A DNA stretch of 32,000 bases, taken from Methanothermobacter marburgensis str. Marburg (GTDB lineage: Archaea > Methanobacteriota > Methanobacteria > Methanobacteriales > Methanothermobacteraceae). This document shows, piece by piece, positions 1 to 14,171 of this stretch; within the stretch, counting starts at the first letter, position 1, and each line of letters begins with the position of its first letter. Location: contig NC_014408.1 of NCBI RefSeq assembly GCF_000145295.1, positions 1,350,001 to 1,382,000 of the forward strand, read 5' to 3'. The notes below the pieces were generated by a model, which saw nothing but the letters and a program-made list of their open reading frames with translations, did no database searches and had not been told where the DNA came from. A program made the position numbers and the translations under genes.

Positions 1-2074
1 CTTTCTGTATTGTTTCCGGTTTGTTTGCAAAATCAAGTATGAATGTATCGTTTTTGTTTTTCATGATCCGGTTGACCCTGTTAAGTGTCTGAACTGCTGC
101 GATACCATTAAGCGGCTTATCAACATACATGGTATGTAATAATGGCTGATCAAATCCAGTTTGGTACTTATTTGCAACAATCAATATTCTGTATGGATCC
201 TCCTCAAAAGCATTCTCTATTGATTTAGATGGAGGGATATCGTTCATTGACGTCTCAGTATACTCCTCACCATCATGCTTGACCGTGCCTGTAAAAGCAA
301 CAAGCGTTTTTATAGGGTAATTCATCTCCCTGATGTATTTATCAAATGTTTTCTTGTACTGCACTGCGTGTAGGCGGGATCTTGTTACAACCATTGCCCT
401 TGCTCTGCCACCAATCTTGTGGATAGTAGAGTTCATGAAATGATCCGCCATTATCTCCGTTTTTTTCCTTATTGAATGGGGGTGTTCCTCAACGAACTTA
501 CGTAATACTCTTTTAGCCTTCTTTTCTTCAAATTCTGGATCTTCTTCCACCGTCTTAATCAAATTGAAATATGTCTTATATGAAATGTAATTTCTGAGAA
601 CATCAAGAATGAAACCTTCTTTGATAGCTTGTTTCATTGAGTAAACATGAAATGGACGGTATTCCCCATACTCATTTCTTGTCCCAAACATTTCAAGTGT
701 TTTGTTTTTTGGTGTGGCTGTAAATGCAAAGAAGCTCACATTTTTAAGATCTCTAAAAGATTCTATTTCATGGAGTAGTTCCATTTGAACGTCATTACTT
801 ACATCGTCAATTAAAGCCGCTTCTTCAAGGCTTTTAACACTTAATACCTGCTTCATCTTCCTGGCAAGAGAACCCGACTGGCTTGAATGTGCCTCATCTA
901 TTATAACTGCATACTTTCTCTTTGGGAGATCTCTTACTTCCTCCATTACAAAGGGAAACTTCTGTAGAGTCGTCACTACAATGTTACTTCCCGTTTTGAG
1001 GGCCTCGGCAAGCTGATGGGAATCCCTATCAATTTTTTCAACTATCCCAATCCGCCTCTCAATTGCCTTTATCTGGTCTTGTAACTGGCGATCTATAACC
1101 CTCCTGTCTGAAACAACAATTACCATGTCATATATTCTCTTGTCAAATGAGTCAAACTTGTTTAGTAATCCATGTGCCAACCATGATATTGTCTTGGTTT
1201 TGCCACTTCCAGGACTGTGCTGTATAAGGTAATTTTGACCCGGCACTGATTCGTCAAGTAATCTGTCAACACATTCCAACTGGTGATACCTTGGAAATAT
1301 TACTGTCTCATTACCCGTCCTCACATTTTTTTCCACGAAGATGAAATTGTTAATAAGTCTTGAGAGCTTGTTGACCTGTAAGATGTCATTATAAAGGTAA
1401 CTCGTTTTGTAATCATTTTTCAGGGGCGGGTTTTCGAGACCCTTGTTAAAGGGCAGGAAGCGGGTATGCTCTCCTTCAAGTTTTGTTGTCATATATATTT
1501 TCTCATCACTCATGGCAAAGTGCACAAGGCATCGCTGGAATAATTTTTCATTTGGGTCCCTATCTTTCCTGTACTGATCCATCGCTTTTTCAACACCTTG
1601 AGTGAACGTATTTTTAAGTTCTATGGTGAGTATAGGTAGCCCGTTGATAAAAATTACAATGTCAAGGCGATCTTTTTTTCTCTCATGATATTGAAGTTCG
1701 TCAATAACTGAAAATATATTACTCTCAAATTTCATGAAAAGGTCGGGGTTACGGTTATTATTGGGCTTGGGGTAGAATAGTTTAAAATGGGCACCCGCCT
1801 CGTGAAATCCATTTCTGAGGAGATAGATAGTTCCTTTTCTTTCGAGTTCGGAAATGAGCCTATGGAAGAATTTCTTTGTTGCGTCTTCCCCATAAACTCT
1901 TTGCAATTGCTCCCACTGTTCCAATTGGGTCTCCATTATGAATTGTAGGGTAATTTCAGGGTCAATACAAGCTGTTTTATCATAGTTATGACTTTTTCTG
2001 CGCTGGTAGCCCGTGCTTAGAAGATAATTGATAATGTGCTCCTGAAATCTCTTTTCAGACGTATCAGTCGACAT
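1..2074 (-). CDS. hsdR: Type I restriction enzyme R subunit (HsdR), C-terminus cut by the window edge
   Basis: Absent from the supplied ORF track because it runs off the left edge. My minus-strand translation from the ATG at 2074-2072 reads MSTDTSEKRFQEHIINYLL... It has a PD-(D/E)xK-like motif RLDIVIFINGLPILTIELK, Walker A QHSPGSGKTKT (about 1196-1228) and a DEAH box VIIDEAHSS (about 887-913). All motifs checked are in one frame, and I saw no stop down to position 2. Confidence 0.9.
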   Translation of the reverse strand, partial: MSTDTSEKRFQEHIINYLLSTGYQRRKSHNYDKTACIDPEITLQFIMETQLEQWEQLQRVYGEDATKKFFHRLISELERKGTIYLLRNGFHEAGAHFKLFYPKPNNNRNPDLFMKFESNIFSVIDELQYHERKKDRLDIVIFINGLPILTIELKNTFTQGVEKAMDQYRKDRDPNEKLFQRCLVHFAMSDEKIYMTTKLEGEHTRFLPFNKGLENPPLKNDYKTSYLYNDILQVNKLSRLINNFIFVEKNVRTGNETVIFPRYHQLECVDRLLDESVPGQNYLIQHSPGSGKTKTISWLAHGLLNKFDSFDKRIYDMVIVVSDRRVIDRQLQDQIKAIERRIGIVEKIDRDSHQLAEALKTGSNIVVTTLQKFPFVMEEVRDLPKRKYAVIIDEAHSSQSGSLARKMKQVLSVKSLEEAALIDDVSNDVQMELLHEIESFRDLKNVSFFAFTATPKNKTLEMFGTRNEYGEYRPFHVYSMKQAIKEGFILDVLRNYISYKTYFNLIKTVEEDPEFEEKKAKRVLRKFVEEHPHSIRKKTEIMADHFMNSTIHKIGGRARAMVVTRSRLHAVQYKKTFDKYIREMNYPIKTLVAFTGTVKHDGEEYTETSMNDIPPSKSIENAFEEDPYRILIVANKYQTGFDQPLLHTMYVDKPLNGIAAVQTLNRVNRIMKNKNDTFILDFANKPETIQK

Positions 2075-2122
2075 TATGGATCCTCTCTTATGTACACAAT
2101 TATTTTTGTAATGTTTTAAAAT

Positions 2123-2983
2123 TTATCTCGGTTCATTTTTAATAAAATTACCAATTCTTGATAATTCATAGATAGCTGCTTTTAACACTTGTTCACAAAG
2201 CAAAGCTGTGTGTTTGTTTGGATAAAACTTATCCTCTAATTGTTTATATGGATGGATATAATTTCTAAAATCTCGTAAATAGTGACTAAATACTTTCACG
2301 TCCCTTTTTAAAAATCCTATTTCATAGGATACGTTAATTAAATCATTTAATTTCCATTTATCAAATTTCTTAACCTTACCATTTTTCTCCCGCGGCGATG
2401 AATTTGCTCTTCCATATTCTTCAGGATACTGAGAAGCTATCCCTAATAATATCCCCTCTAAAGTGCTGCCGATGAGAAAAATAGAAGCTAAATAAGCCTC
2501 ATTATTTAAACAGATACGGATCTCATTCATTCTTGAGTTAAGCATAGTCACAATATTTTCATCAAATCCCAATGAAAAAAAATCGGGGACATCAAATTCC
2601 CGCTGTAAAAAAAATTCTTCGCCGTTAGAACCAGTTTCCAGTGATTCATCTAATATAAACTTAGCTTTTTCGAATAATTTCCAATTTTTTTCATTGTCGC
2701 AATCATAGAGATATTCATAGTAGTCCAACAAATCTCTTAATAGTTTATGAACGGTAGCATCGGATTCTATATCCCAGAAACATCTTAATCTGTTTGCTTT
2801 TGAGTGACTAGGATAACCCAATTCGTCACATGCTTTTTCATAATCCTCATCAAAAATATCTTTACCTACACTAGTTCTAACAAAATCTCGAAAGGTTTTA
2901 TTTGAAAAGTCTAAAACATAGCCTGTCTTCATGTTAAATAACTTTTCAAATATTTGTCTTTGTAATTTATTTAAGGTCGACAT
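2123..2983 (-). CDS. HEPN-like protein embedded in the type I R-M operon (putative R-M-associated RNase / abortive-infection effector)
   Basis: 286-aa ORF. Its start overlaps the hsdS stop by 17 nt, and its stop lies 48 nt before the hsdR start. The C-terminal helical region carries LRDFRNYIHP (R237...H244 = Rx6H, nt 2252-2275). The N-terminus has GYVLDFSNKTFRDF and SKANRLRCFW, which I recall from Abi/HEPN-type defence proteins. No P-loop is present. Confidence 0.6.
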   Translation of the reverse strand: MSTLNKLQRQIFEKLFNMKTGYVLDFSNKTFRDFVRTSVGKDIFDEDYEKACDELGYPSHSKANRLRCFWDIESDATVHKLLRDLLDYYEYLYDCDNEKNWKLFEKAKFILDESLETGSNGEEFFLQREFDVPDFFSLGFDENIVTMLNSRMNEIRICLNNEAYLASIFLIGSTLEGILLGIASQYPEEYGRANSSPREKNGKVKKFDKWKLNDLINVSYEIGFLKRDVKVFSHYLRDFRNYIHPYKQLEDKFYPNKHTALLCEQVLKAAIYELSRIGNFIKNEPR

Positions 2984-4274
2984 TTTTACCGACTCTTTCT
3001 TTCACATCAACTTTTCCTGTGACAAGGTGATAAATGAGCGATTTCTTGTATTCCTTAAGAAGATCAACATTTTTTTGGATTTTTTTGGTTGTCAAATTAA
3101 TTTTTGAACTATTTTGATCCAAATAACTAACAATAATTTTCTGTTCCTTAAGAGGCGGAACTTGAATTCTTAAGTTTTTAATTACATGCTGGCTAATATT
3201 CGGCTGCCCTCCACCATCACTTAAAGATATGATATTATCTCTATTACTAAAAAACCAATAGAAAACAAACTTAATGTCTAATATATTACTGTTTGACAAT
3301 ACACAACAAGCTTGATTGACACAAGCATCTATGTTAAGTAAAGATATCTTTCCAATTGTAGCGCCATACATGGCAACTATTAAGGAATTCTTCTTATAGA
3401 TTTTTAGAGCACTATAGTCCCTCAAAGCTTTTTTTGTGATCCTTTTTGATGTTTCATTTAAAATAGAATCATTTAAATCCCCAGTAATGACCCAAGGGAT
3501 GGTGCCTCTATTATAATAACTTCCATCTTGAGATTTGGGCGTTGTTCCACTGCCAATAATCTCAAAACTTCGAGATATTTTTCTTAATTCCCAATTTTGA
3601 GGAATTTCACCAATCCACTTAACACCAGAATACTTCATTTTTACATTAGGATTCAGACCTTTCGTCACCGCCTGATTTATTAATGCGTTTCTTTTTTCTT
3701 GTAAAAGATCGATAAGTCGAGTATACTTCTCTATTGTTAGATCAATTTTAGATATCTTGCTATCTAGAAAGGACGCTATCTTCCTTTGTTCTTCTAAACT
3801 AGGGTATGGGATTCTAATAGTTGCCAATACATTATCTTTAACATGAGGAATACCCATCCCCGTGGTCAAATCCTTCAACAAAGGCTCAAAAGCCTTGCAT
3901 AGATACTTTGAGTACCCCAGATCCATCTCTGACACAATTAATTTAACCATTGTGGACGATAAATAACCGTCTTTGCCTTCTAAGAACTCTCCAGCATTTG
4001 AACCATCCCATAACAACAACAAATCCCCATCATTAACCCTAACAGCACCTCCATCAGAATCACAGTAAAAAACCTTAGATTCTCTTCCTCTCAGATAATC
4101 CATAGTAAGATACGGAAGAGAATCCCCAGATGGAGTCTCTCGAAGATCTTTAGGAACCTTTCCTTTTATATACTTAAAATGGATTTTAAACCTGTGCACA
4201 TTCCACCCACAAGGTATCTCACCAATCCACTCAACACCAGAATCCTTATATTCAGGGTAAGGTTTTAAATTCAT
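2967..4274 (-). CDS. hsdS: Type I R-M specificity subunit (HsdS), two target-recognition domains
   Basis: 435 aa with the internal duplication typical of HsdS. YKDSGVEWIGEIPCGWN matches YSGVKWIGEIPQNWE. There are two conserved coiled spacer regions (LEEQRKIASFLDSKISKIDL... and LKEQKIIVSYLDQNSSKINL...). Confidence 0.92.
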   Translation of the reverse strand: MNLKPYPEYKDSGVEWIGEIPCGWNVHRFKIHFKYIKGKVPKDLRETPSGDSLPYLTMDYLRGRESKVFYCDSDGGAVRVNDGDLLLLWDGSNAGEFLEGKDGYLSSTMVKLIVSEMDLGYSKYLCKAFEPLLKDLTTGMGIPHVKDNVLATIRIPYPSLEEQRKIASFLDSKISKIDLTIEKYTRLIDLLQEKRNALINQAVTKGLNPNVKMKYSGVKWIGEIPQNWELRKISRSFEIIGSGTTPKSQDGSYYNRGTIPWVITGDLNDSILNETSKRITKKALRDYSALKIYKKNSLIVAMYGATIGKISLLNIDACVNQACCVLSNSNILDIKFVFYWFFSNRDNIISLSDGGGQPNISQHVIKNLRIQVPPLKEQKIIVSYLDQNSSKINLTTKKIQKNVDLLKEYKKSLIYHLVTGKVDVKERVGKNVDLK

Positions 4275-4293
4275 GAAAAACTACTCCCAAACC

Positions 4294-6309
4294 CTAATCA
4301 TCCAGATCATCCTTTATAAGTTCCAAGATCTCACTAGTCAATTTCTGGATATCACTATTAATATCCTCTAGAGATCTTGGAGGTTTATACTTGTAAAAGT
4401 ACTGGTTGAAATTTATTTCATAACCTATCTTATCCTTTTTTCGATCCATCCAGGCATCCGGATAATATGGTAAGACTTCTCTTTTGAAATACTCATCGAT
4501 ATCCTCCTTTAGGGGTATCCTCTCAGTATCCCTTAACTTAGGATCAGGTTTTATATTACCCCTCGTATCAGTAACATAGTCAGCAGTTTCATCATGTTCA
4601 GAAAGGGCATGTATAATATTTCTTATAAAGGCGTTTGAAAGTTCAAAATTTTTCAGGGTCCTTTTAACTTCCTTTTCAAAATCCTTCCAGTTTTTATAGT
4701 GGCCATTAATTTTCTGGAGCGCCCTAATAATGTCTAACTGCAATTTTTTCCCTTTCTCCTCCTCAATCATTCTCTTCTCAATATTTTTATTCTTGCTCTC
4801 AGCCAATTTTCTGAATGCATTCATAGAGTATAGATTCTGCAGTCGCTCTTCAGTCACTTCAAAGTTCAGTTGCATGGGTCTTTCTACAGTGACCTTTACG
4901 TAACCAAAGTCATCGTTATCAAATATTTTAACCATATCGTTTTCACTGAAGTTTCTGTAGAAAGTAAGAATATCGTCTATATCCCTGTCACTTAATTGGT
5001 GTCTCTTCTTACCAAGACTTTTTCTCATCTTCACGTACTTGGAGGATGCATCTATTAGCTGTATCTTACCAATCCTATCAGGGGACTTCTGATTTGTCAG
5101 GATCCATATGTAAGTCCTTATGCTCGTGTTATAGAATAACTGATCTGGAAGACCTATAATGGTCTCCAGATAATCATTTTCAATTATCCATCGCCTGATG
5201 TTACTTTCTCCAGACCCAGCATCGCCTGTGAATAGGGGTGAGCCATTTGTAATGACGGCTATTCTGGATTTTTCATCATCCTTCATCTTTGATAACATGT
5301 GCTGTATGAAAAGAAGCTGCCCATCTTTTATTCCAGGGAGTCCTGCTCCAAATCTCCCATCAAATCCAAGTTCAGCTTCCTTTTCAACAACCTCTTTATC
5401 TTGCTCCCATTTACGACCGTAAGGAGGGTTTGATATCATAAAGTCAAATTTTTCATCCTTTAACTGATCATCAGAAAGAGTGCTTGATGGTCCCTTTATA
5501 TTTTCAGCGCGCTCGCCCTTAATAAGCATGTCCGCCTTGCATATTGCATATATCTCTTCATTAATTTCCTGACCATACAGTACCACATCAATCGTGTCGT
5601 TTATCTCCCTTACAAAATTCTTACAACTTGTTAACATGCCCCCTGTTCCACACGCAGGGTCGTATATCTTCTTAATGAGGTTCTTTTCCTTCAGATTCTC
5701 TCCATTCTCCAAAAAAAGAAGATGAGTCATGAGCTTAACAACATCACGTGGCGTGAAGTGTTGTCCCGCCTCTTCATTTGACTGTTCGGAGAACCTCCTG
5801 ATGAGTTCCTCAAAGATGATTCCCATATCATGGTTGGATATCTTATCCGGATGAAGGTCAACCTTGGACTCTGAAAATTTCTTTATGAGGAGGTATAAAA
5901 GGTTGGCCTTTGAAAGTTTCTCTATATGCGTTTTGATGTAGAAGTTTTCAAAGATGTCCTTAACATTTGGGCTGAAACAGTCCAAATAGTGCATAAGATT
6001 CTCCTCGATATGATCAGGGTCTTCAAGGAGGGATTTAAAGTCATATTTTGAGTAGTTATAAAATCCAAGCTTTCTTCCATCTTTATCGACGGCAGCTGCC
6101 TCTAAAATGGGATCAAGATTTTCTATCTTATCTTTATATTCGTTGTACTTTCTTAGGACATCATCTTTTGAGTGTTCTAGAACGCAGTCAAATCGTTTTA
6201 AAACTGTGAATGGGAGTATAACCTTTTGGTATTCGTTTCTTTTGTATGTGTCCCTCAGTAGATCAGCTATGTCCCATATAAAAGATACTATGTCCTGATG
6301 GTTTTCCAT
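4294..6309 (-). CDS. hsdM: Type I R-M N6-adenine DNA methyltransferase subunit (HsdM), long form
   Basis: 671 aa. It has an HsdM N-terminal helix (IVSFIWDIADLLRDTYKRNEYQKVILPFTVLKRFD), SAM motif I DPACGTGGML, catalytic motif IV FDFMISNPPYG and a C-terminal KIGYEINFNQYFY module. Confidence 0.95.
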   Translation of the reverse strand: MENHQDIVSFIWDIADLLRDTYKRNEYQKVILPFTVLKRFDCVLEHSKDDVLRKYNEYKDKIENLDPILEAAAVDKDGRKLGFYNYSKYDFKSLLEDPDHIEENLMHYLDCFSPNVKDIFENFYIKTHIEKLSKANLLYLLIKKFSESKVDLHPDKISNHDMGIIFEELIRRFSEQSNEEAGQHFTPRDVVKLMTHLLFLENGENLKEKNLIKKIYDPACGTGGMLTSCKNFVREINDTIDVVLYGQEINEEIYAICKADMLIKGERAENIKGPSSTLSDDQLKDEKFDFMISNPPYGRKWEQDKEVVEKEAELGFDGRFGAGLPGIKDGQLLFIQHMLSKMKDDEKSRIAVITNGSPLFTGDAGSGESNIRRWIIENDYLETIIGLPDQLFYNTSIRTYIWILTNQKSPDRIGKIQLIDASSKYVKMRKSLGKKRHQLSDRDIDDILTFYRNFSENDMVKIFDNDDFGYVKVTVERPMQLNFEVTEERLQNLYSMNAFRKLAESKNKNIEKRMIEEEKGKKLQLDIIRALQKINGHYKNWKDFEKEVKRTLKNFELSNAFIRNIIHALSEHDETADYVTDTRGNIKPDPKLRDTERIPLKEDIDEYFKREVLPYYPDAWMDRKKDKIGYEINFNQYFYKYKPPRSLEDINSDIQKLTSEILELIKDDLDD

Positions 6310-6478
6310 TAAAGCACCGCCACAATTTTTTCATGTGTTATTATTGATTTCAATGATATTACAAAGCATGAATTATCTCCTATCTAAAATGGAATCCAAG
6401 GTGTGTGTCAGTAAATCATCGACCTGAACAACATATAAACTGCAATCTACAGTCTGTAGTTATTAATCAGTTAGTTTA

Positions 6479-7027
6479 TTACTTTTTTAATTTTTCTAAT
6501 TGGCGTCTAGCGATTTTTGCAACTCGTTCCTCACTTTTTGCAATATGAAGCCACGTTTTTTTGCTGAAATTGCAGTATGGACAACGTATATCATACCAAT
6601 AAAATTTATCAACCTGCTCTAAGTCGGTTTCGCATTTTGGACATCTAGGACCTTCAATATTAACAAGCCTTTCATTTACTTGACTGCGATTTACTGGGTT
6701 GGGAGTCCTTATTCTCCATAGTAGTCCATCATATCTCAATTCAAAATTAACAACCCATCCCATTGCAGATCCAGCTGCATATGGATGAACCATATATCGC
6801 ATCCTCCTGCGGATGAAGACTGTGATAATCCATACTGTTATAAGTATTATTGAAAATTGGCAAATCATGTTTGAGTAAGAATAAACAAATTTTAGATTAA
6901 ATCTTATTAAATGTGAACAAAGAAAGGGGGCGACAAAACTAAAGATTGCTGCCACAAGAGGAGAACAATAGCTAGTAATTAAAATTTCTTTTATGTTCAT
7001 CTTTTTTTCTCCCAAGAGCCATGTCAA
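6479..7027 (-). CDS. Membrane-anchored Zn-ribbon protein, function unknown
   Basis: 182-aa ORF. Two hydrophobic helices (LVAAIFSFVAPFLCSHLI, FSIILITVWIITVFI) precede a soluble domain with CPKC-x16-CPYC. The start may instead be the ATG at 7000 (MNIKEIL), which is preceded by GGGAGA. It has island composition and the same strand as the R-M operon, 169 nt upstream of hsdM. Confidence 0.6.
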   Translation of the reverse strand: MTWLLGEKKMNIKEILITSYCSPLVAAIFSFVAPFLCSHLIRFNLKFVYSYSNMICQFSIILITVWIITVFIRRRMRYMVHPYAAGSAMGWVVNFELRYDGLLWRIRTPNPVNRSQVNERLVNIEGPRCPKCETDLEQVDKFYWYDIRCPYCNFSKKTWLHIAKSEERVAKIARRQLEKLKK

Positions 7028-7236
7028 CTTAACTATTCTCTTCGAATTCTATATCTACTAGTTTAGAATATAACATCTACTAACTTAAATATGTTTAAGT
7101 ATTGTGAAAGAGCTTACATATGTCATGTCATTTTTATAAGCGAAAAGTATCAGTATTAACATTCAGAGGCTATGAAGAAATGTGTAAAGTTTGTATTTAA
7201 TCGATTGGTGTTTCCATGCCAGAGGACCTATTTTAA

Positions 7237-7330
7237 AGTAAAAATCCCAATTTGGTCTGATTTCAAGAAATAATTGCAGAAACGACGTGATTGTACTTGT
7301 ATTTTCAATCCCAATTTGGTCTGATTTTAC
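7237..7330 (-). CRISPR. Orphan mini-CRISPR: 2 repeats (30 nt) and 1 spacer (34 nt), no cas genes in window
   Basis: Repeat 7301-7330 is attttcaatcccaatttggtctgattttac. Repeat 7237-7266 is agtaaaaatcccaatttggtctgatttcaa, with an identical 20-nt core atcccaatttggtctgattt and degenerate ends. The spacer is 7267-7300. On the minus strand the intact repeat ends in GATTGAAAAT, like the archaeal ATTGAAA-type 5'-handle. It resembles the 30-nt repeat I recall from Methanothermobacter arrays (from memory, unverified). An AT-rich leader-like stretch at 7331-7437 lies on the side of the intact repeat. Confidence 0.65.
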
Positions 7331-7587
7331 TTTAATACAATATGTAACTATAGTCTTATATATTTATTGAACTGACATGTTAAGTTAATGACCCGCATAA
7401 AAAACTTATAAAAGATTTTTTTCAGAGTAATAAATGAAAACTCAGGTTAACCGAGACGTTCTCACACCATCTACAGAAAGATTTTCCACCCAACCCCTCT
7501 TTCATTATAAACCTTCTTGAACGGTCTGTCTCCAGGTTTAAGATTGTTCTTGAAGAACTATTCCAGACAGGCCCCATCCACAGGGAA

Positions 7588-8619
7588 ATGCGCTCCAGGA
7601 GAGATTACCATGGTTCAAGGCTCTACACTGGCTCATCACTGAATCTATCACCCTACAGGATCTACATTAAAAGCTGGCATGACCATGAAACCATACTCAA
7701 CAGGATGATATCCCAGACAGCATATTACCTTATGTGCGCAGCTGAACTTGTGGGTGGAATGGTTGATGGTGAAAGGTCTGAATTATGCCAGACTCTCTTC
7801 AGATCAGCGGCTGGAATCATGGACAGGTACCATCTCTGGGCCTTTTTCACCATCGATATTCTTGAGGAATCAAAGATCCTTGAACGACTAATATCAGAGG
7901 GAAACAGGCTTTACAATGAAATTTACAGCATCTTCCGGATGATAAGGGACACTGTTATTTACCTCAACCTCATCCACCCTCTGCAGGGGGATGGAGTGGA
8001 GATGCCCCTTCAGGAATTTTACAGTATATATGAACTCTGGGCGATCTCAAGAATATGGGATAAATTCCGCCAGATGGGATTTCATATTAAATCTGTTGAA
8101 AAGGCGCTTTCACATCTTCCATCATCGAAAATATCCATCAGGATGGAAAGGGGCAATGAAAGTGCCACGATAATATGGGAAGTGAAGCTAAATGCAATTG
8201 AACACTCAACCTACTATGGTGACCTCCTGCAGGCTCTCGGAGGAGGTGGAAGTGTTATAAAACCCGATATAACCGTTCTCTATGAATCTGAAGGTCATAA
8301 GAGGGCTCTGGTGGGGGATGTTAAGTTTTCAGTTACAGATACCGGACTTCCCCGACTTGAATCCATCTATAAAGTTCTCAGTTATGTGGAGGATCTCAGA
8401 AAATCCCCCCTGTTCAGAGGATGGGATCTTGAGGGGCTCCTGGTATACCCTGGAATGGTGAGCCCAGTTAGCGTTCCCTCCTCACTCGTTGCATACCAAT
8501 TTATACTATCGATTATACTAATGGTGAGCCCAGTTAGCGTTCCCTCCTCACAGAGTGGCAGCCATATCCATGTTTTTCCGCTTAACACATCAAACAGGGA
8601 ATTTGGGGTATTTGGTTAA
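7588..8619 (+). CDS. PD-(D/E)xK nuclease-fold protein (McrC/DUF2357-like guess), probably 5'-truncated and carrying an in-frame 66-bp insertion
   Basis: 343-aa ORF. The nuclease-like core is VIKPDITVLYES...ALVGDVKFS (D...D-x-K). The same frame stays open without any ATG/GTG/TTG back to a TGA at 7435-7437, reading ...LLERSVSRFKIVLEELFQTGPIHRE before M1. MVSPVSVPSS is duplicated 22 codons apart. Confidence 0.55.
   Translation: MRSRRDYHGSRLYTGSSLNLSPYRIYIKSWHDHETILNRMISQTAYYLMCAAELVGGMVDGERSELCQTLFRSAAGIMDRYHLWAFFTIDILEESKILERLISEGNRLYNEIYSIFRMIRDTVIYLNLIHPLQGDGVEMPLQEFYSIYELWAISRIWDKFRQMGFHIKSVEKALSHLPSSKISIRMERGNESATIIWEVKLNAIEHSTYYGDLLQALGGGGSVIKPDITVLYESEGHKRALVGDVKFSVTDTGLPRLESIYKVLSYVEDLRKSPLFRGWDLEGLLVYPGMVSPVSVPSSLVAYQFILSIILMVSPVSVPSSQSGSHIHVFPLNTSNREFGVFG
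8454..8551. repeat. Perfect 32-bp direct repeat flanking a 34-bp AT-rich insert (period 66 bp) inside a CDS
   Basis: aatggtgagcccagttagcgttccctcctcac occurs at 8454-8485 and 8520-8551. The insert 8486-8519 is tcgttgcataccaatttatactatcgattatact. The structure can equally be read as a 30-bp duplication plus a 36-bp insert. Confidence 0.95.
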
Positions 8620-10500: not shown

Positions 10501-11910
10501 TTGAGGTTCAGGTCCATTGAAAAGTCACCTACCGGTATAAAGGGTCTTGATATGGTAACAGGGGGTGGTTTTCCCCAGGGGAGGAACACACTCATCTATG
10601 GTGGCCCAGGTACCGGAAAGACATTCATTGCAGTTGAGTTTCTCCTGAATGGGGCATCCTACTACGGGGAGCACGGTGTCCTTGTGAGCTTTGATGAACC
10701 GGCAGATAACATTGTTGAGAACTTCCAGACAGATGACAGGATCCTTGAAAAACTGATTAAAGATGGTAAAATATTTATTGAAGACGTTTCAGGGGCACCT
10801 GACCCCAGTATAGGATCCTACAGTCTGGATGCCCTTAAGATAAGGATCGAGGATGCTGTTAAAACCACCGGGGCCAGCAGGGTTGTCCTTGATAAGGTGG
10901 ACAGCCTCTTTGATGGTGTATCAGACAGGGGGCCCCTCCACATGGAACTGCGCCACCTCATATCCTGGCTGAATGGGATGGGGGTTACAAGCGTATTCAC
11001 CGCCGGCGACTCGGGGGGTAAACCAACACATGGACTTGAGGACTACATCTCCGACTGTGTCATACACCTCACCCACACCTTCGATGGGGAGGTTGGAACA
11101 AGACACATGCGAATAGTCAAGTACCGCGGCTCCAGCCACGGCCTCAACAGGTACCCCTTCCTCATCAATGAGAGAGGAATCTCAATCTTCCCGATAACCT
11201 CCCTCAAACTGGATTACAGTGTCAGCCGGGAACTCGTCTCCACAGGGATACCTGACCTGGATGATATGCTGGGTGGGGGTGTATACAGGGGTTCCAGTGT
11301 CCTCATATCAGGTACGACAGGGGCCGGTAAGACCACCGTTCTTTCAAAATTTGCCTATGAGGCCTGCCGCCGCGGTGAACGCTGCCTCTACTTTGCCAAT
11401 GAGGAGCCCGCAGATCAGATAATCCGGAACATGGAATCGGTGGGGATCCAGCTCAAAGATCATACTGATGATAAACTCATGATACACTCCGATAGGCCCA
11501 CATCACTGGGACTTGAATCCCACCTGACCGAGATGCAGGACCTTGTAATGGACTTCAAACCTGATACTGTACTTGTGGACCCTGTTACTGGCCTTGCAGC
11601 TGCAGGTGGACCCTCAAATAGGGTCAGCAATGCAAAGAACCTCTTCATAAGGTTCACCGATTTTCTGAAGTCACGGGGTGTGACCTCCCTCTTCACATAC
11701 CTTATAAGGTCACCGGTCACCGCAACCCAGACTGAACTTGAGATCTCATCACTGATTGATACTTGGATTGTCCTGGAGCATGTGAGGACCAACGGTGATT
11801 ACAAGAGGCTCCTCCGCATACTAAAGAGCAGGGGAATGGACCACTCAAGCAGCGTCGCAGAGCTGAAATTCACTGAAAGGGGGATTCTCATCAAGGGGGG
11901 ATCCTGGTGA
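10501..11910 (+). CDS. kaiC: KaiC-like double RecA-domain ATPase
   Basis: 469 aa with a TTG start. There are two P-loops, GGPGTGKT (N-terminal domain) and GTTGAGKT (C-terminal domain), each preceded by GIPGLD/GIKGLD-type motifs. Confidence 0.88.
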   Translation: MRFRSIEKSPTGIKGLDMVTGGGFPQGRNTLIYGGPGTGKTFIAVEFLLNGASYYGEHGVLVSFDEPADNIVENFQTDDRILEKLIKDGKIFIEDVSGAPDPSIGSYSLDALKIRIEDAVKTTGASRVVLDKVDSLFDGVSDRGPLHMELRHLISWLNGMGVTSVFTAGDSGGKPTHGLEDYISDCVIHLTHTFDGEVGTRHMRIVKYRGSSHGLNRYPFLINERGISIFPITSLKLDYSVSRELVSTGIPDLDDMLGGGVYRGSSVLISGTTGAGKTTVLSKFAYEACRRGERCLYFANEEPADQIIRNMESVGIQLKDHTDDKLMIHSDRPTSLGLESHLTEMQDLVMDFKPDTVLVDPVTGLAAAGGPSNRVSNAKNLFIRFTDFLKSRGVTSLFTYLIRSPVTATQTELEISSLIDTWIVLEHVRTNGDYKRLLRILKSRGMDHSSSVAELKFTERGILIKGGSW

Positions 11911-11926
11911 GAGTGGGGGATGAGTC

Positions 11927-12172
11927 ATGATCCATCTTCGCATATACATCGCCGGTGATAACCTTTCAGCTGCGGCCCTTGAAAACCTCAGGAATGTTAT
12001 GGGTGATGATGCGAAGCTAGAGGTTGTTGATGTCCGTGGAGACCCCGAGATTGCAAGGGAGAATGGAGTCATTGCCATTCCGACCCTGGAGAGGATAAGC
12101 CCGGGCCCCAGGCGGAGGGTTATAGGGGACCTCAATGACCCTGATGCCCTGCGCAGATTCATAGGTATCTGA
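11927..12172 (+). CDS. kaiB: KaiB-like thioredoxin-fold protein
   Basis: 81 aa. LRIYIAGDNLSAAALENLRNV...VVDVRGDPEIARENGVIAIPTL matches the KaiB pattern. It starts 16 nt after kaiC. Confidence 0.85.
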   Translation: MIHLRIYIAGDNLSAAALENLRNVMGDDAKLEVVDVRGDPEIARENGVIAIPTLERISPGPRRRVIGDLNDPDALRRFIGI

Positions 12173-12182
12173 GGTGCATGGT

Positions 12183-14171
12183 ATGGAGAATGCAATCAGG
12201 AGGATCAATGACCTCATTGATGAGAGGAGAGAGGAGGATACCCTATCACTCATCAGGGGTATGGAAGCAGGGGACCATATCTGCATCATATACGATGATG
12301 AGGCTGAGTGGAGGAGGATCATTGTTCCCTTCATCATCGAGGGCCTCAGGAGGGATGAGAGGTGCATATACATAGCCAGCCAGAGGACATGCGAAACCAT
12401 CAGGGAGGAGCTCGGCAGGAAGATCCCTGTTTCCATGTTTGAAGCCGGAGGGAGCCTCAGGATAATGAATGAAACTGAGGCTTACACAGAGGGGGGTTTC
12501 TTTGACCCTGAAAGGATGCTTGACCTCCTTGAATCCGAAACAGAAAATGCGGTTGCCGAGGGCTTCACTGGCCTCAGGGTTACCGGTGAAATGAGCTGGG
12601 TCCTCAGGGGCCTCCCCGGGAGCGAAAGGCTGATAGAGTATGAGGCCAGACTCAACAATTTCTTCCCGGGATCTGACTGCCTTGCCATCTGCCAGTACCA
12701 CAGGCAACTCTTCAGCCCCGATGTGATCAGGGGAGTCCTGCTCACCCACCCCATAGTTGTCTGGAACTCAGGTGTGTACAGAAACCCATACTATATAAGC
12801 CCGGAGCTTATCCTCAGCGGTGAAGAATGTGAGAGGGAGGTGGATAACTGGCTCGAGAATATAAAAAGGGAGAATGAACTTTTAAGGTCCCTTGAAAACA
12901 TCAAAAAGCTCTATGATGAGTTCATAAACCACAGTCCATGGATAGTGTTCCTCAAGGATTTCAGGTCAAGGTACGTGATTGCAAACAGCAGGTTTTCAGA
13001 GCTTGTGGGAACAGAGGATATCACCGGAAAGACCGACTTTGATCTGATGGACAGAGAGGCCGCTGAGGCCTGCCTTGAGTCCGACAGGATTGCCCTGAGG
13101 GACGGTGAATCCTACACTGAGGAGGAAGTTAAGGGCAGGGTCTACGGGGTATACAAATTTGGTTTTAAGCTGCCCGATGGTAGAAGGGGTGTCGGTGGCT
13201 TTGCAGTTGATATAACACAGAGAAAGGTGTATGAGCGGGACATTGAAACCTCGAGGAACAACTTCTTGGGTATCGTTGAGAACAGCCCGGAGCCCATGGT
13301 GATAGTGGATCTGGATGGCAAACTCCTCTACTCAAACCCTGCTGGCAGAAAGTTCTTTGGCTGGCCCCCCGATTACAGGGGTGGGCACATCGGAGTACCC
13401 CTCAGGAGGGAGATACCGGAGATCAGGGTCCTTTCTGCTGACGGCCAGGTGCGGGTGGCTGAGATGATGGTGACAGACACTGTCTGGGAGGGCAGAAAAT
13501 CCCTCCTTATCAGACTCCATGATATAACCAGGCTCCGTGAATATGAGATTTCCCTGAAGAGGTCCCTCAGGGAGAAGGAGGTGATGCTCAGGGAGATACA
13601 TCACAGGGTCAAAAACAACCTCCAGATAATATCCAGCCTCCTTAACCTCCAGAGATGCTCTATCCAGGATGAGAGGGCTGCCGACGTATTCACCGATAGT
13701 GTTAACCGTGTCAAGTCCATGGCCATGATACATGAGAAACTGTACCAGTCAGAGAGCCTTGCTGACCTACCATTCTCAGAGTACATAATTGACCTCGTAT
13801 CTGAGATAAGGTCAAATTATCCTGAAAAAAGGATATCGGTTAATTACGATATGGAGGACATTCACCTGGATATAAACAGGGCCATACCGGCAGGTTTAAT
13901 AGTCAACGAGGCCGTCACCAACTCCATGAAGCATGCGTTCAAATCAGGTGAAGGTGAACTCATCATACGCCTATTTTCGAGGGAGGGCATGGTCCATGTG
14001 GAGGTTGAGGATGACGGACCCGGTCTTCCAGCGGACTTTGATACAGATACCAGCGGCGGCCTTGGCATGGATCTTATGAGGAACCTTGCATCGCAGCTCG
14101 ATGGTGAACTCAGAATCAGGGGGGATGATGGCGTGCGGGTGAGCCTTGTTTTCCCGGCACAGAAAAACTGA
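12183..14171 (+). CDS. Sensor histidine kinase: MEDS domain + PAS domains + HisKA_2/HATPase_c
   Basis: The ORF runs 12174..14171. I prefer the ATG at 12183, 5 nt after GAGGTG. The N-terminus has the MEDS-like GDHICIIYDDEAEWRRIIVPFIIEGL. There are PAS-like segments in the middle. The H-box is EIHHRVKNNLQIISSLLNLQ, and ATP-lid motifs are NEAVTNSMKHAF and DDGPGLP...GGLGM. Confidence 0.9.
   Translation: MENAIRRINDLIDERREEDTLSLIRGMEAGDHICIIYDDEAEWRRIIVPFIIEGLRRDERCIYIASQRTCETIREELGRKIPVSMFEAGGSLRIMNETEAYTEGGFFDPERMLDLLESETENAVAEGFTGLRVTGEMSWVLRGLPGSERLIEYEARLNNFFPGSDCLAICQYHRQLFSPDVIRGVLLTHPIVVWNSGVYRNPYYISPELILSGEECEREVDNWLENIKRENELLRSLENIKKLYDEFINHSPWIVFLKDFRSRYVIANSRFSELVGTEDITGKTDFDLMDREAAEACLESDRIALRDGESYTEEEVKGRVYGVYKFGFKLPDGRRGVGGFAVDITQRKVYERDIETSRNNFLGIVENSPEPMVIVDLDGKLLYSNPAGRKFFGWPPDYRGGHIGVPLRREIPEIRVLSADGQVRVAEMMVTDTVWEGRKSLLIRLHDITRLREYEISLKRSLREKEVMLREIHHRVKNNLQIISSLLNLQRCSIQDERAADVFTDSVNRVKSMAMIHEKLYQSESLADLPFSEYIIDLVSEIRSNYPEKRISVNYDMEDIHLDINRAIPAGLIVNEAVTNSMKHAFKSGEGELIIRLFSREGMVHVEVEDDGPGLPADFDTDTSGGLGMDLMRNLASQLDGELRIRGDDGVRVSLVFPAQKN

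Follow-up and report, generated by a model that had tools for sequence, protein, structure and literature searches.

What is encoded by the open reading frame (ORF) that separates the specificity gene from the restriction gene in a type I restriction-modification (R-M) operon of Methanothermobacter marburgensis str. Marburg? The ORF, called X here, lies within a stretch of 32,000 nucleotides (nt) of contig NC_014408.1 (positions 1,350,001 to 1,382,000), and this whole stretch is referred to as the window. A previous interpretation made from the letters alone, called the sequence-only reading below, described X as a HEPN-like gene in the position that prrC occupies in Escherichia coli. Pfam identifies hsdM, hsdS, and hsdR around X, which puts X, in this archaeal type I operon, at the place taken by PrrC. 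The analysis suggests that X is probably a single-polypeptide effector of the abortive-infection type that has no nucleoside triphosphatase (NTPase) domain, that is, a self-contained sensor-effector RNase.

The X gene is part of a compact operon and is closely tied to hsdS. The genes hsdM, hsdS, X, and hsdR follow each other in this order on one strand and are contiguous, and the Pfam domains of the three Hsd proteins are those of a type I R-M system (Table 1). The 3' end of hsdS and the start of X share 17 nt. Co-transcription of X with hsdS follows from this overlap; the sequence-only reading had included hsdR in the same transcript, and for that gene co-transcription is plausible at most. 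No terminator-like site is present within the 48-nt spacer between X and hsdR. The spacer includes the A/T-rich stretch TTTTAAAA, a candidate archaeal TATA box when read by eye, and separate transcription of hsdR could start from it. Just 5' of the hsdR start codon (ATG at 2074) is AGAGAGGA, which by eye resembles a Shine-Dalgarno sequence. Full-length relatives of this HsdR have 963 to 964 amino acids. The length of X, its overlap with hsdS, and its distance from hsdR were reproduced as first reported, and so was the lack of a P-loop: the Walker A pattern GxxxxGK[ST] is absent from the X sequence, and neither Pfam nor NCBIfam finds an NTPase family in it.

X belongs to a very large family that has no name. 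A word-indexed search found homologues in 4,991 protein clusters at E ≤ 1e-3, and an exhaustive HMMER scan found that 2,501 representatives of 50% clusters match X, 190 of them at E ≤ 1e-30. The thousands of homologue clusters show that X is a real gene and rule out a chance ORF. Relatives were found in at least 575 species genomes. The family is found in many bacterial phyla and several archaeal lineages, is mostly bacterial, and has members of about 275 amino acids. A protein identical to X is present on a metagenome contig from a biogas fermenter, with the gene order preserved. The tier of 65-94% identity includes every named Methanothermobacter or Methanobacterium protein among the matches and otherwise consists mostly of unnamed metagenome proteins; below it, identity falls to 56%, and proteins of many bacterial phyla follow at about 48%. 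X and its relatives have no match at threshold in Pfam, NCBIfam, or PADLOC, and a PHROGs scan of X gave nothing usable. No phage-encoded relatives were found in a fold search of the BFVD viral library or in a phage genome collection.

The C-terminal part of X resembles a HEPN domain, and its putative active-site residues are highly conserved. With moderate confidence, the last 160 or so amino acids can be assigned to a divergent HEPN domain that is nearest to DUF4145; three lines of evidence agree on this, none of them significant alone. The AlphaFold2 model of full-length X has a predicted local distance difference test score (pLDDT) of 87, and its C-terminal half is helical, as the sequence-only reading had expected. 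A model of residues 120-286 has a pLDDT of 94.8 and a predicted template modeling score of 0.89, and has an all-alpha, up-and-down bundle of helices that resembles the HEPN fold. When this domain model was compared with the PDB by Foldseek, 29 of the 30 top matches were HEPN proteins. They include HepT toxins, HI0074, TT1696, TM0613, ST0689, YutE, and Csm6, with MtlR and AbiV ranked lower, and they have probabilities of up to 0.91, target-normalized template modeling scores of up to 0.61, and E-values of 0.13-5. The full-length, two-domain model gave diffuse matches, and only the domain query was informative.

Profile searches point to the same region. Matches to DUF4145 (PF13643, HEPN clan) occur in 19 of 26 members of the X family, all below threshold (best E-value 1e-4; listed scores of 14-19 bits versus a gathering threshold of 23.1 bits), and X itself has no DUF4145 match in Pfam at E ≤ 1. 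The matches converge on about residues 154-247, also in relatives with unrelated N-termini. Abi_C (PF14355) has no match in X or in the 26 relatives. A comparison by hhalign of a diverse alignment (A2) with single AbiJ and DUF3644 sequences gave nothing informative, the templates being single sequences and the alignment ragged. The HEPN assignment made by the sequence-only reading is supported by the conserved R...H residues and by the top fold matches, and it lacks a profile match at a curated threshold.

The motif LRDFRNYIHP lies exactly where it had been reported. The codons from R237 to H244 occupy nt 2275..2252, and R237-x6-H244 has the Rx4-6H signature with a polar residue after the arginine. 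Conservation was assessed in 338 unique sequences of several architectures, of which 333 have a residue at the motif positions. R237 is conserved in 328 of the 333, R240 and N241 in all 333, and H244 in 331. Outside the motif, R151 is conserved in 335 of the 338 sequences and E176 in all of them. The four motif residues, whose conservation had been proposed as a check on the HEPN assignment, are invariant in alignment A2. The domain is not restricted to proteins with the layout of X, as it is also found behind TPR repeats and behind several unrecognized N-termini.

The N-terminal module of X is found with several kinds of effector. It is mostly helical and has a conserved extended GYVLDF segment. 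The two motifs picked out by the sequence-only reading, GYVLDFSNKTFRDF and SKANRLRCFW, are present in X and recur in its homologues and in Abi_C proteins. Over residues 1-88, X has 40% identity to the N-terminal end of the plasmid protein WP_172691877, annotated as "abortive infection family protein", and the C-terminus of that protein is an Abi_C domain (50 bits, above the Pfam threshold). Its gene adjoins genes for an Eco57I-like methylase and a BsuBI/PstI endonuclease. When a profile was built from the module, it matched four Abi_C-protein loci with E-values of 1e-23 to 1e-30 and added three Abi_C proteins to the one just named, one of them encoded on a Lichenicola plasmid. In addition, a metagenomic protein of 419 amino acids (P0265) has two of these modules in tandem, followed by a TIR domain that is ThsB-like in PADLOC, which indicates that the module is common to several effector classes. 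No match to the Pfam families AbiJ_NTD3, AbiJ_NTD4, or AbiJ_NTD5 was found in X or 26 relatives, and the N-terminal module of X has no Cys4 pattern. Sequence similarity therefore supports the AbiJ-NTD-type label in substance, through a module held in common with Abi_C proteins, and not membership in one of those three families.

An arrangement involving both kinds of protein was observed on metagenome contigs. At two loci (L086:7001-8616 and L087:35-1659) a homologue 54% identical to X lies tail-to-tail, with a 4-nt overlap, with the gene for a 257-amino-acid protein that consists of the X N-terminal module and Abi_C. There are no R-M genes nearby. Two different HEPN effectors thus stand side by side behind one sensor module.

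The genomic context of the relatives shows that enrichment between hsdS and hsdR is real and strong. ORFs were called in 80 related loci with up to 10 kilobases (kb) of flanking sequence each, the best-scoring of at least 575, and the loci were searched with profiles seeded from the HsdM, HsdS, and HsdR proteins of the window. In 45 of the 80 loci type I hsd genes adjoin the X relative on the same strand. The order can be determined in 43 of the type I loci: 25 have the complete order hsdM-hsdS-X-hsdR and 10 have truncated versions of it, as the sequence-only reading anticipated. X directly follows hsdS in 35 of the 43. The junction measures -55 to +10 nt in 27 of 33 cases, with an exact overlap of 4 nt in 16. 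The distance from X to hsdR, on the other hand, is variable, being below 100 nt in 8 of 32 cases and 0.6-3.9 kb in the other 24. Archaeal relatives with both flanks readable (Methanobacterium and Ca. Argoarchaeum) keep the order hsdM-hsdS-X-hsdR, and a Micrarchaeota contig is too short beyond hsdS-X.

Relatives of X also occur with other R-M systems and alone. In seven loci a gene for an MmeI-like methylase-endonuclease is upstream, and genes for a DEAD helicase and a T5orf172/MUG113 protein are downstream; six of the seven show a 4-nt overlap between the MmeI-like gene and the start of X. Three loci have other R-M-like partners, namely an N6_N4 methylase with a UvrD helicase, a C5 methylase with a HerA-like ATPase, and a ResIII enzyme. 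About 25 loci have a solo X with no recurrent neighbor, only mixed housekeeping and scattered defense genes. The constant partner of X is the specificity or methylase gene and not hsdR.

The space between X and hsdR often holds additional genes. Most of the gaps of 0.6-3.9 kb are filled by heterogeneous cargo on the same strand. RhuM is found in seven loci and an M78/IrrE-like peptidase in four, and other occupants are DUF6119, DUF3644 (a HEPN family), DUF6932, a Schlafen AlbA_2 protein with a helix-turn-helix domain, and a ResIII helicase (examples at L020:1483-4594, L056:7486-8640, L005:10851-12458, and L009:10774-11805). X is always in the first slot after hsdS, ahead of the cargo. The MmeI-type operons (L038, L041, L050, L057, L059, L075, and L077; four are from Acetobacteraceae) encode the MmeI-like enzyme, X, a DEAD/ResIII helicase of about 700 amino acids with weak similarity to PbeA of PADLOC, and, in five of the seven, a T5orf172/MUG113 protein of 400 amino acids.

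These observations suggest how a self-contained effector might work. By analogy with characterized HEPN RNases, the HEPN domain of X would dimerize, and a metal-independent RNase site would be formed by R237, R240, N241, and H244, with E176 and R151 assisting. The N-terminal 115 or so amino acids would form a module of the AbiJ-NTD kind that regulates or senses and can be exchanged between effectors. X would be translationally coupled to the specificity gene and would serve as a second line of defense beside restriction. Because its gene directly follows hsdS and is coupled to it, X would be made whenever the modification and specificity genes are expressed. An infection signal would then switch X on, and it would cut cellular RNA (tRNA, rRNA, or mRNA) and arrest the cell. 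The off-state is likelier to be intrinsic to X, depending on the N-terminal module and the oligomeric state, than to result from binding to the Hsd complex.

Several points weigh against this interpretation. No model of the HEPN clan reaches its curated cut-off for the X family, none of the Foldseek E-values for the domain model is below 0.1, and sequence and profile searches of the PDB with X returned only chance matches (a ribosomal protein and RNA polymerase). From the invariant R240-N241 pair to H244 the distance is only three residues, shorter than in the canonical Rx4-6H, which makes the identity of the catalytic arginine uncertain. The 80 loci were chosen by score and are not a random sample, and for seven of the solo loci the upstream sequence is too short for a methylase gene to be excluded. 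No experimental work on the X family was found in the literature. Finally, tight and recurrent coupling to hsdS is also expected if X is a physical partner of the R-M enzyme, as PrrC is.

The explanation that survives best beside the self-contained effector is a guard of the PrrC type, as proposed by the sequence-only reading. X would be kept latent by binding to HsdM and HsdS, perhaps together with HsdR, and a viral anti-restriction factor would release the RNase. X occupies the prrC slot; PrrC itself is kept masked by the EcoprrI enzyme and works through an ABC NTPase (PMC3025547, PMC3710099). The position directly behind hsdS in most of the orderable type I loci, with junctions that are mostly translationally coupled, fits such a partnership, and the arrangement is kept in Methanobacteriales and in Ca. 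Argoarchaeum. However, the solo relatives imply that the protein must be tolerable on its own, and 10 of the 80 loci follow other R-M types, such as MmeI-like, N6_N4, or C5 methylases that are unrelated to HsdS. The correlation of pairwise distances is weak between X and the adjacent HsdM (rho 0.23) and between X and HsdR (rho 0.20), while the value for HsdM versus HsdR is 0.93. Abi_C and TIR effectors outside type I operons use the N-terminal module too, and no fusion of X to an Hsd subunit was found among 267 sampled proteins. On balance a guard of this type seems unlikely, though the tight coupling to hsdS keeps it in play.

The distribution of contexts within the family bears on the same issue. 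Context is inherited in part, as the nearest neighbor is in the same context in 53 of 80 cases, versus 33 ± 5 expected, but type I, MmeI, and solo contexts are still intermixed within X clades. The solo copies, the varied R-M partners, the weak co-evolution with HsdM and HsdR, and the reuse of the N-terminal module favor a self-controlled X over an obligate PrrC-like complex. The evidence therefore leans towards self-regulation of X, with its tie to the R-M system limited to co-expression.

A broader form of guarding is conceivable but doubtful. X and its relatives may be NTPase-less guards of the modification and specificity half of R-M systems. The N-terminal module would dock on or monitor HsdM2S or an MmeI-type assembly, or it would sense a shared anti-restriction agent, for example a DNA mimic, and the HEPN RNase would be released upon attack. 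If true, archaea would have their first guard system of this sort, and it would be a general and portable one for R-M systems that differs from PrrC and PARIS.

Two further explanations give X a different role altogether. X could be a selfish addiction toxin that penalizes loss of the R-M island instead of being triggered by infection. The X gene lies on a low-G+C island that was probably acquired horizontally, HepT structures are its best fold matches and HEPN toxins are common in toxin-antitoxin modules, and the gene moves between contexts. However, no recurrent antitoxin-like partner is found beside X, the genes that follow it are heterogeneous cargo, and the solo copies have no conserved neighbor, which makes addiction very unlikely. 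Least probable of all is a non-catalytic HEPN protein that binds RNA or a ligand and regulates R-M expression or activity in the manner of MtlR, without nuclease activity: some HEPN families are non-catalytic (PMC3710099), MtlR is among the weak fold matches, and the R240-H244 spacing is atypical, but near-invariance of R237, R240, N241, H244, and E176 across several architectures indicates an active site, and the TIR effector swapped in behind the same N-terminal module indicates an effector role.

The hsd-X operon lies on an island of unusual composition. The G+C fraction is 0.32-0.40 over positions 1-8000, compared with about 0.46-0.55 over 9000-32000, and the left end of the island is outside the window. 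The island was probably acquired horizontally, given its low G+C content, and this origin is consistent with the mainly bacterial distribution of the X family.

Table 1. Coordinates of the hsd-X operon, the parts of X, and the surrounding island, numbered from the first nucleotide of the window.
Feature	Positions	Strand	Basis
Low-G+C island with the hsd-X operon and two ORFs of unrecognized family	1..8600		G+C content
hsdR, N-terminal 691 amino acids; the rest is beyond the window start	1..2074	minus	Pfam HSDR_N, SWI2_SNF2/ResIII, T1R_D3-like
X-hsdR spacer, 48 nt	2075..2122	minus	Sequence
ORF X, 286 amino acids	2123..2983	minus	ORF list and sequence; ATG start
HEPN-like C-terminal domain of X, residues 120 to ~276, with a family-specific insert at ~186-226	2156..2626	minus	AlphaFold2, Foldseek, DUF4145 matches
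LRDFRNYIHP, residues 236-245, putative HEPN catalytic motif	2249..2278	minus	R237-x6-H244 with R240 and N241 inside; conservation
N-terminal module of X, residues 1 to ~116, motifs GYVLDFSxxTFxxF and SKANRLRxFW	2636..2983	minus	Family conservation; similarity to Abi_C proteins
hsdS, 435 amino acids, two target-recognition domains	2967..4274	minus	Pfam Methylase_S, E-value 1.9e-46, two stretches
hsdM, 671 amino acids	4294..6309	minus	Pfam HsdM_N and N6_Mtase

Other genes of the window were also inspected. An ORF of 182 amino acids (6479-7027, minus strand) is directly upstream of hsdM; it has hydrophobic N-terminal segments and a zinc-ribbon-like pair, CPKC...CPYC, and no Pfam or PADLOC match. 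An ORF of 343 amino acids (7588-8619, plus strand) likewise has no match in Pfam or PADLOC, and by eye it has a PD-(D/E)xK-like pattern (KPDITV ... GDVKFS). Its 3' end includes a perfect direct repeat of 32 nt (8454-8485 and 8520-8551, 66 nt apart), which is located at the G+C boundary between island and core, just before the gene for an ABC-2 permease. Further on, at 10501-14171 on the plus strand, are the genes for a KaiC-like double ATPase and then a MEDS-PAS-HisKA_2 histidine kinase. These are ordinary core content and unrelated to X.

The X family offers a practical test case for a hypothesis about restriction. The idea that restriction is backed by suicide RNases (immunity-suicide coupling) is long-standing. 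To our knowledge, PrrC is the only restriction-linked suicide RNase that has been worked out, and abortive-infection systems in methanogens are essentially unstudied. The concept behind X is already known and will not surprise a specialist, and the family is a good experimental handle on it. It is large and compact, is absent from Pfam, NCBIfam, and PADLOC, and is mostly coupled to a specificity or methylase gene. Its study could tell whether embedded effectors are guarded by R-M systems or autonomous, and the solo and embedded members of the same clades are natural controls. For methanogens, X adds a candidate abortive-infection module.

Links between HEPN domains and R-M systems were reported earlier. 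Type I R-M components can be joined, by linkage or by fusion, to HEPN domains, DUF4145 among them, and at least 16 HEPN clades occur in R-M neighborhoods, "primarily in bacteria" (PMC3506569, PMC3632139, PMC3710099). A fusion of DUF4145 to AbiJ-NTD1 (gi 113972064) and operons with R-M genes were listed in the same work, and the R-M-linked HEPN proteins were proposed in 2012-2013 as second-line suicide RNases like PrrC (PMC3506569, PMC3632139, PMC3710099). The novelty claimed by the sequence-only reading accordingly holds for experimental characterization and not for the concept. For other proteins, such as TgvAB, experiments have since demonstrated that type I operons can hold embedded cargo (PMC11411939). 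X and the published type I cases have in common a DUF4145-like HEPN domain that is physically tied to type I R-M genes. However, X is free-standing, tied to hsdS, and below the DUF4145 gathering threshold, while the published DUF4145 cases include fusions to HsdR.

PrrC of the E. coli prr locus (EcoprrI, type Ic) is similar to X in several respects. Both are encoded within a type I operon, flanked by the specificity gene and the restriction gene, both have a C-terminal HEPN-type domain with an R...H motif (essential in PrrC), and both have a proposed second-line abortive role. The regulatory N-terminal part of PrrC is an ABC-type NTPase, and X has a helical module of the AbiJ-NTD type instead. 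Unlike PrrC, relatives of X are also found alone or with other R-M types. No sequence similarity between X and PrrC was detected, and with the NTPase lacking as well, X is ruled out as a PrrC homologue.

RAZR (PD-T7-4) is an experimentally dissected DUF4145 protein, and X is likened to it by domain layout and motif. Both are single-gene proteins that combine an N-terminal regulatory or sensing domain with a divergent DUF4145-type HEPN domain. In RAZR, R146 and H154 are essential for defense, which occurs by abortive infection through RNA cleavage, and the protein cleaves single-stranded RNA when it is incubated with the phage trigger Gp77 (PMC13017515). RAZR is activated by assembly on phage ring proteins (PMC13017515), and its Cys4 zinc ribbon takes the place of the AbiJ-NTD-type module of X. 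In contrast to RAZR, the family of X matches DUF4145 only below threshold and has no PADLOC model.

AbiJ-type proteins include Abi_C carriers with the N-terminal module of X, they follow the same two-domain sensor-effector logic, and like X they are often encoded beside R-M genes. The HEPN domain of AbiJ-type proteins is Abi_C, while the one in X has no Abi_C match and lies closer to DUF4145; X as AbiJ proper is ruled out because it has no Abi_C domain. An interchangeable sensor-effector layout has been described for Abi-type HEPN proteins (PMC3710099), and the modular make-up of X and its relatives follows it.

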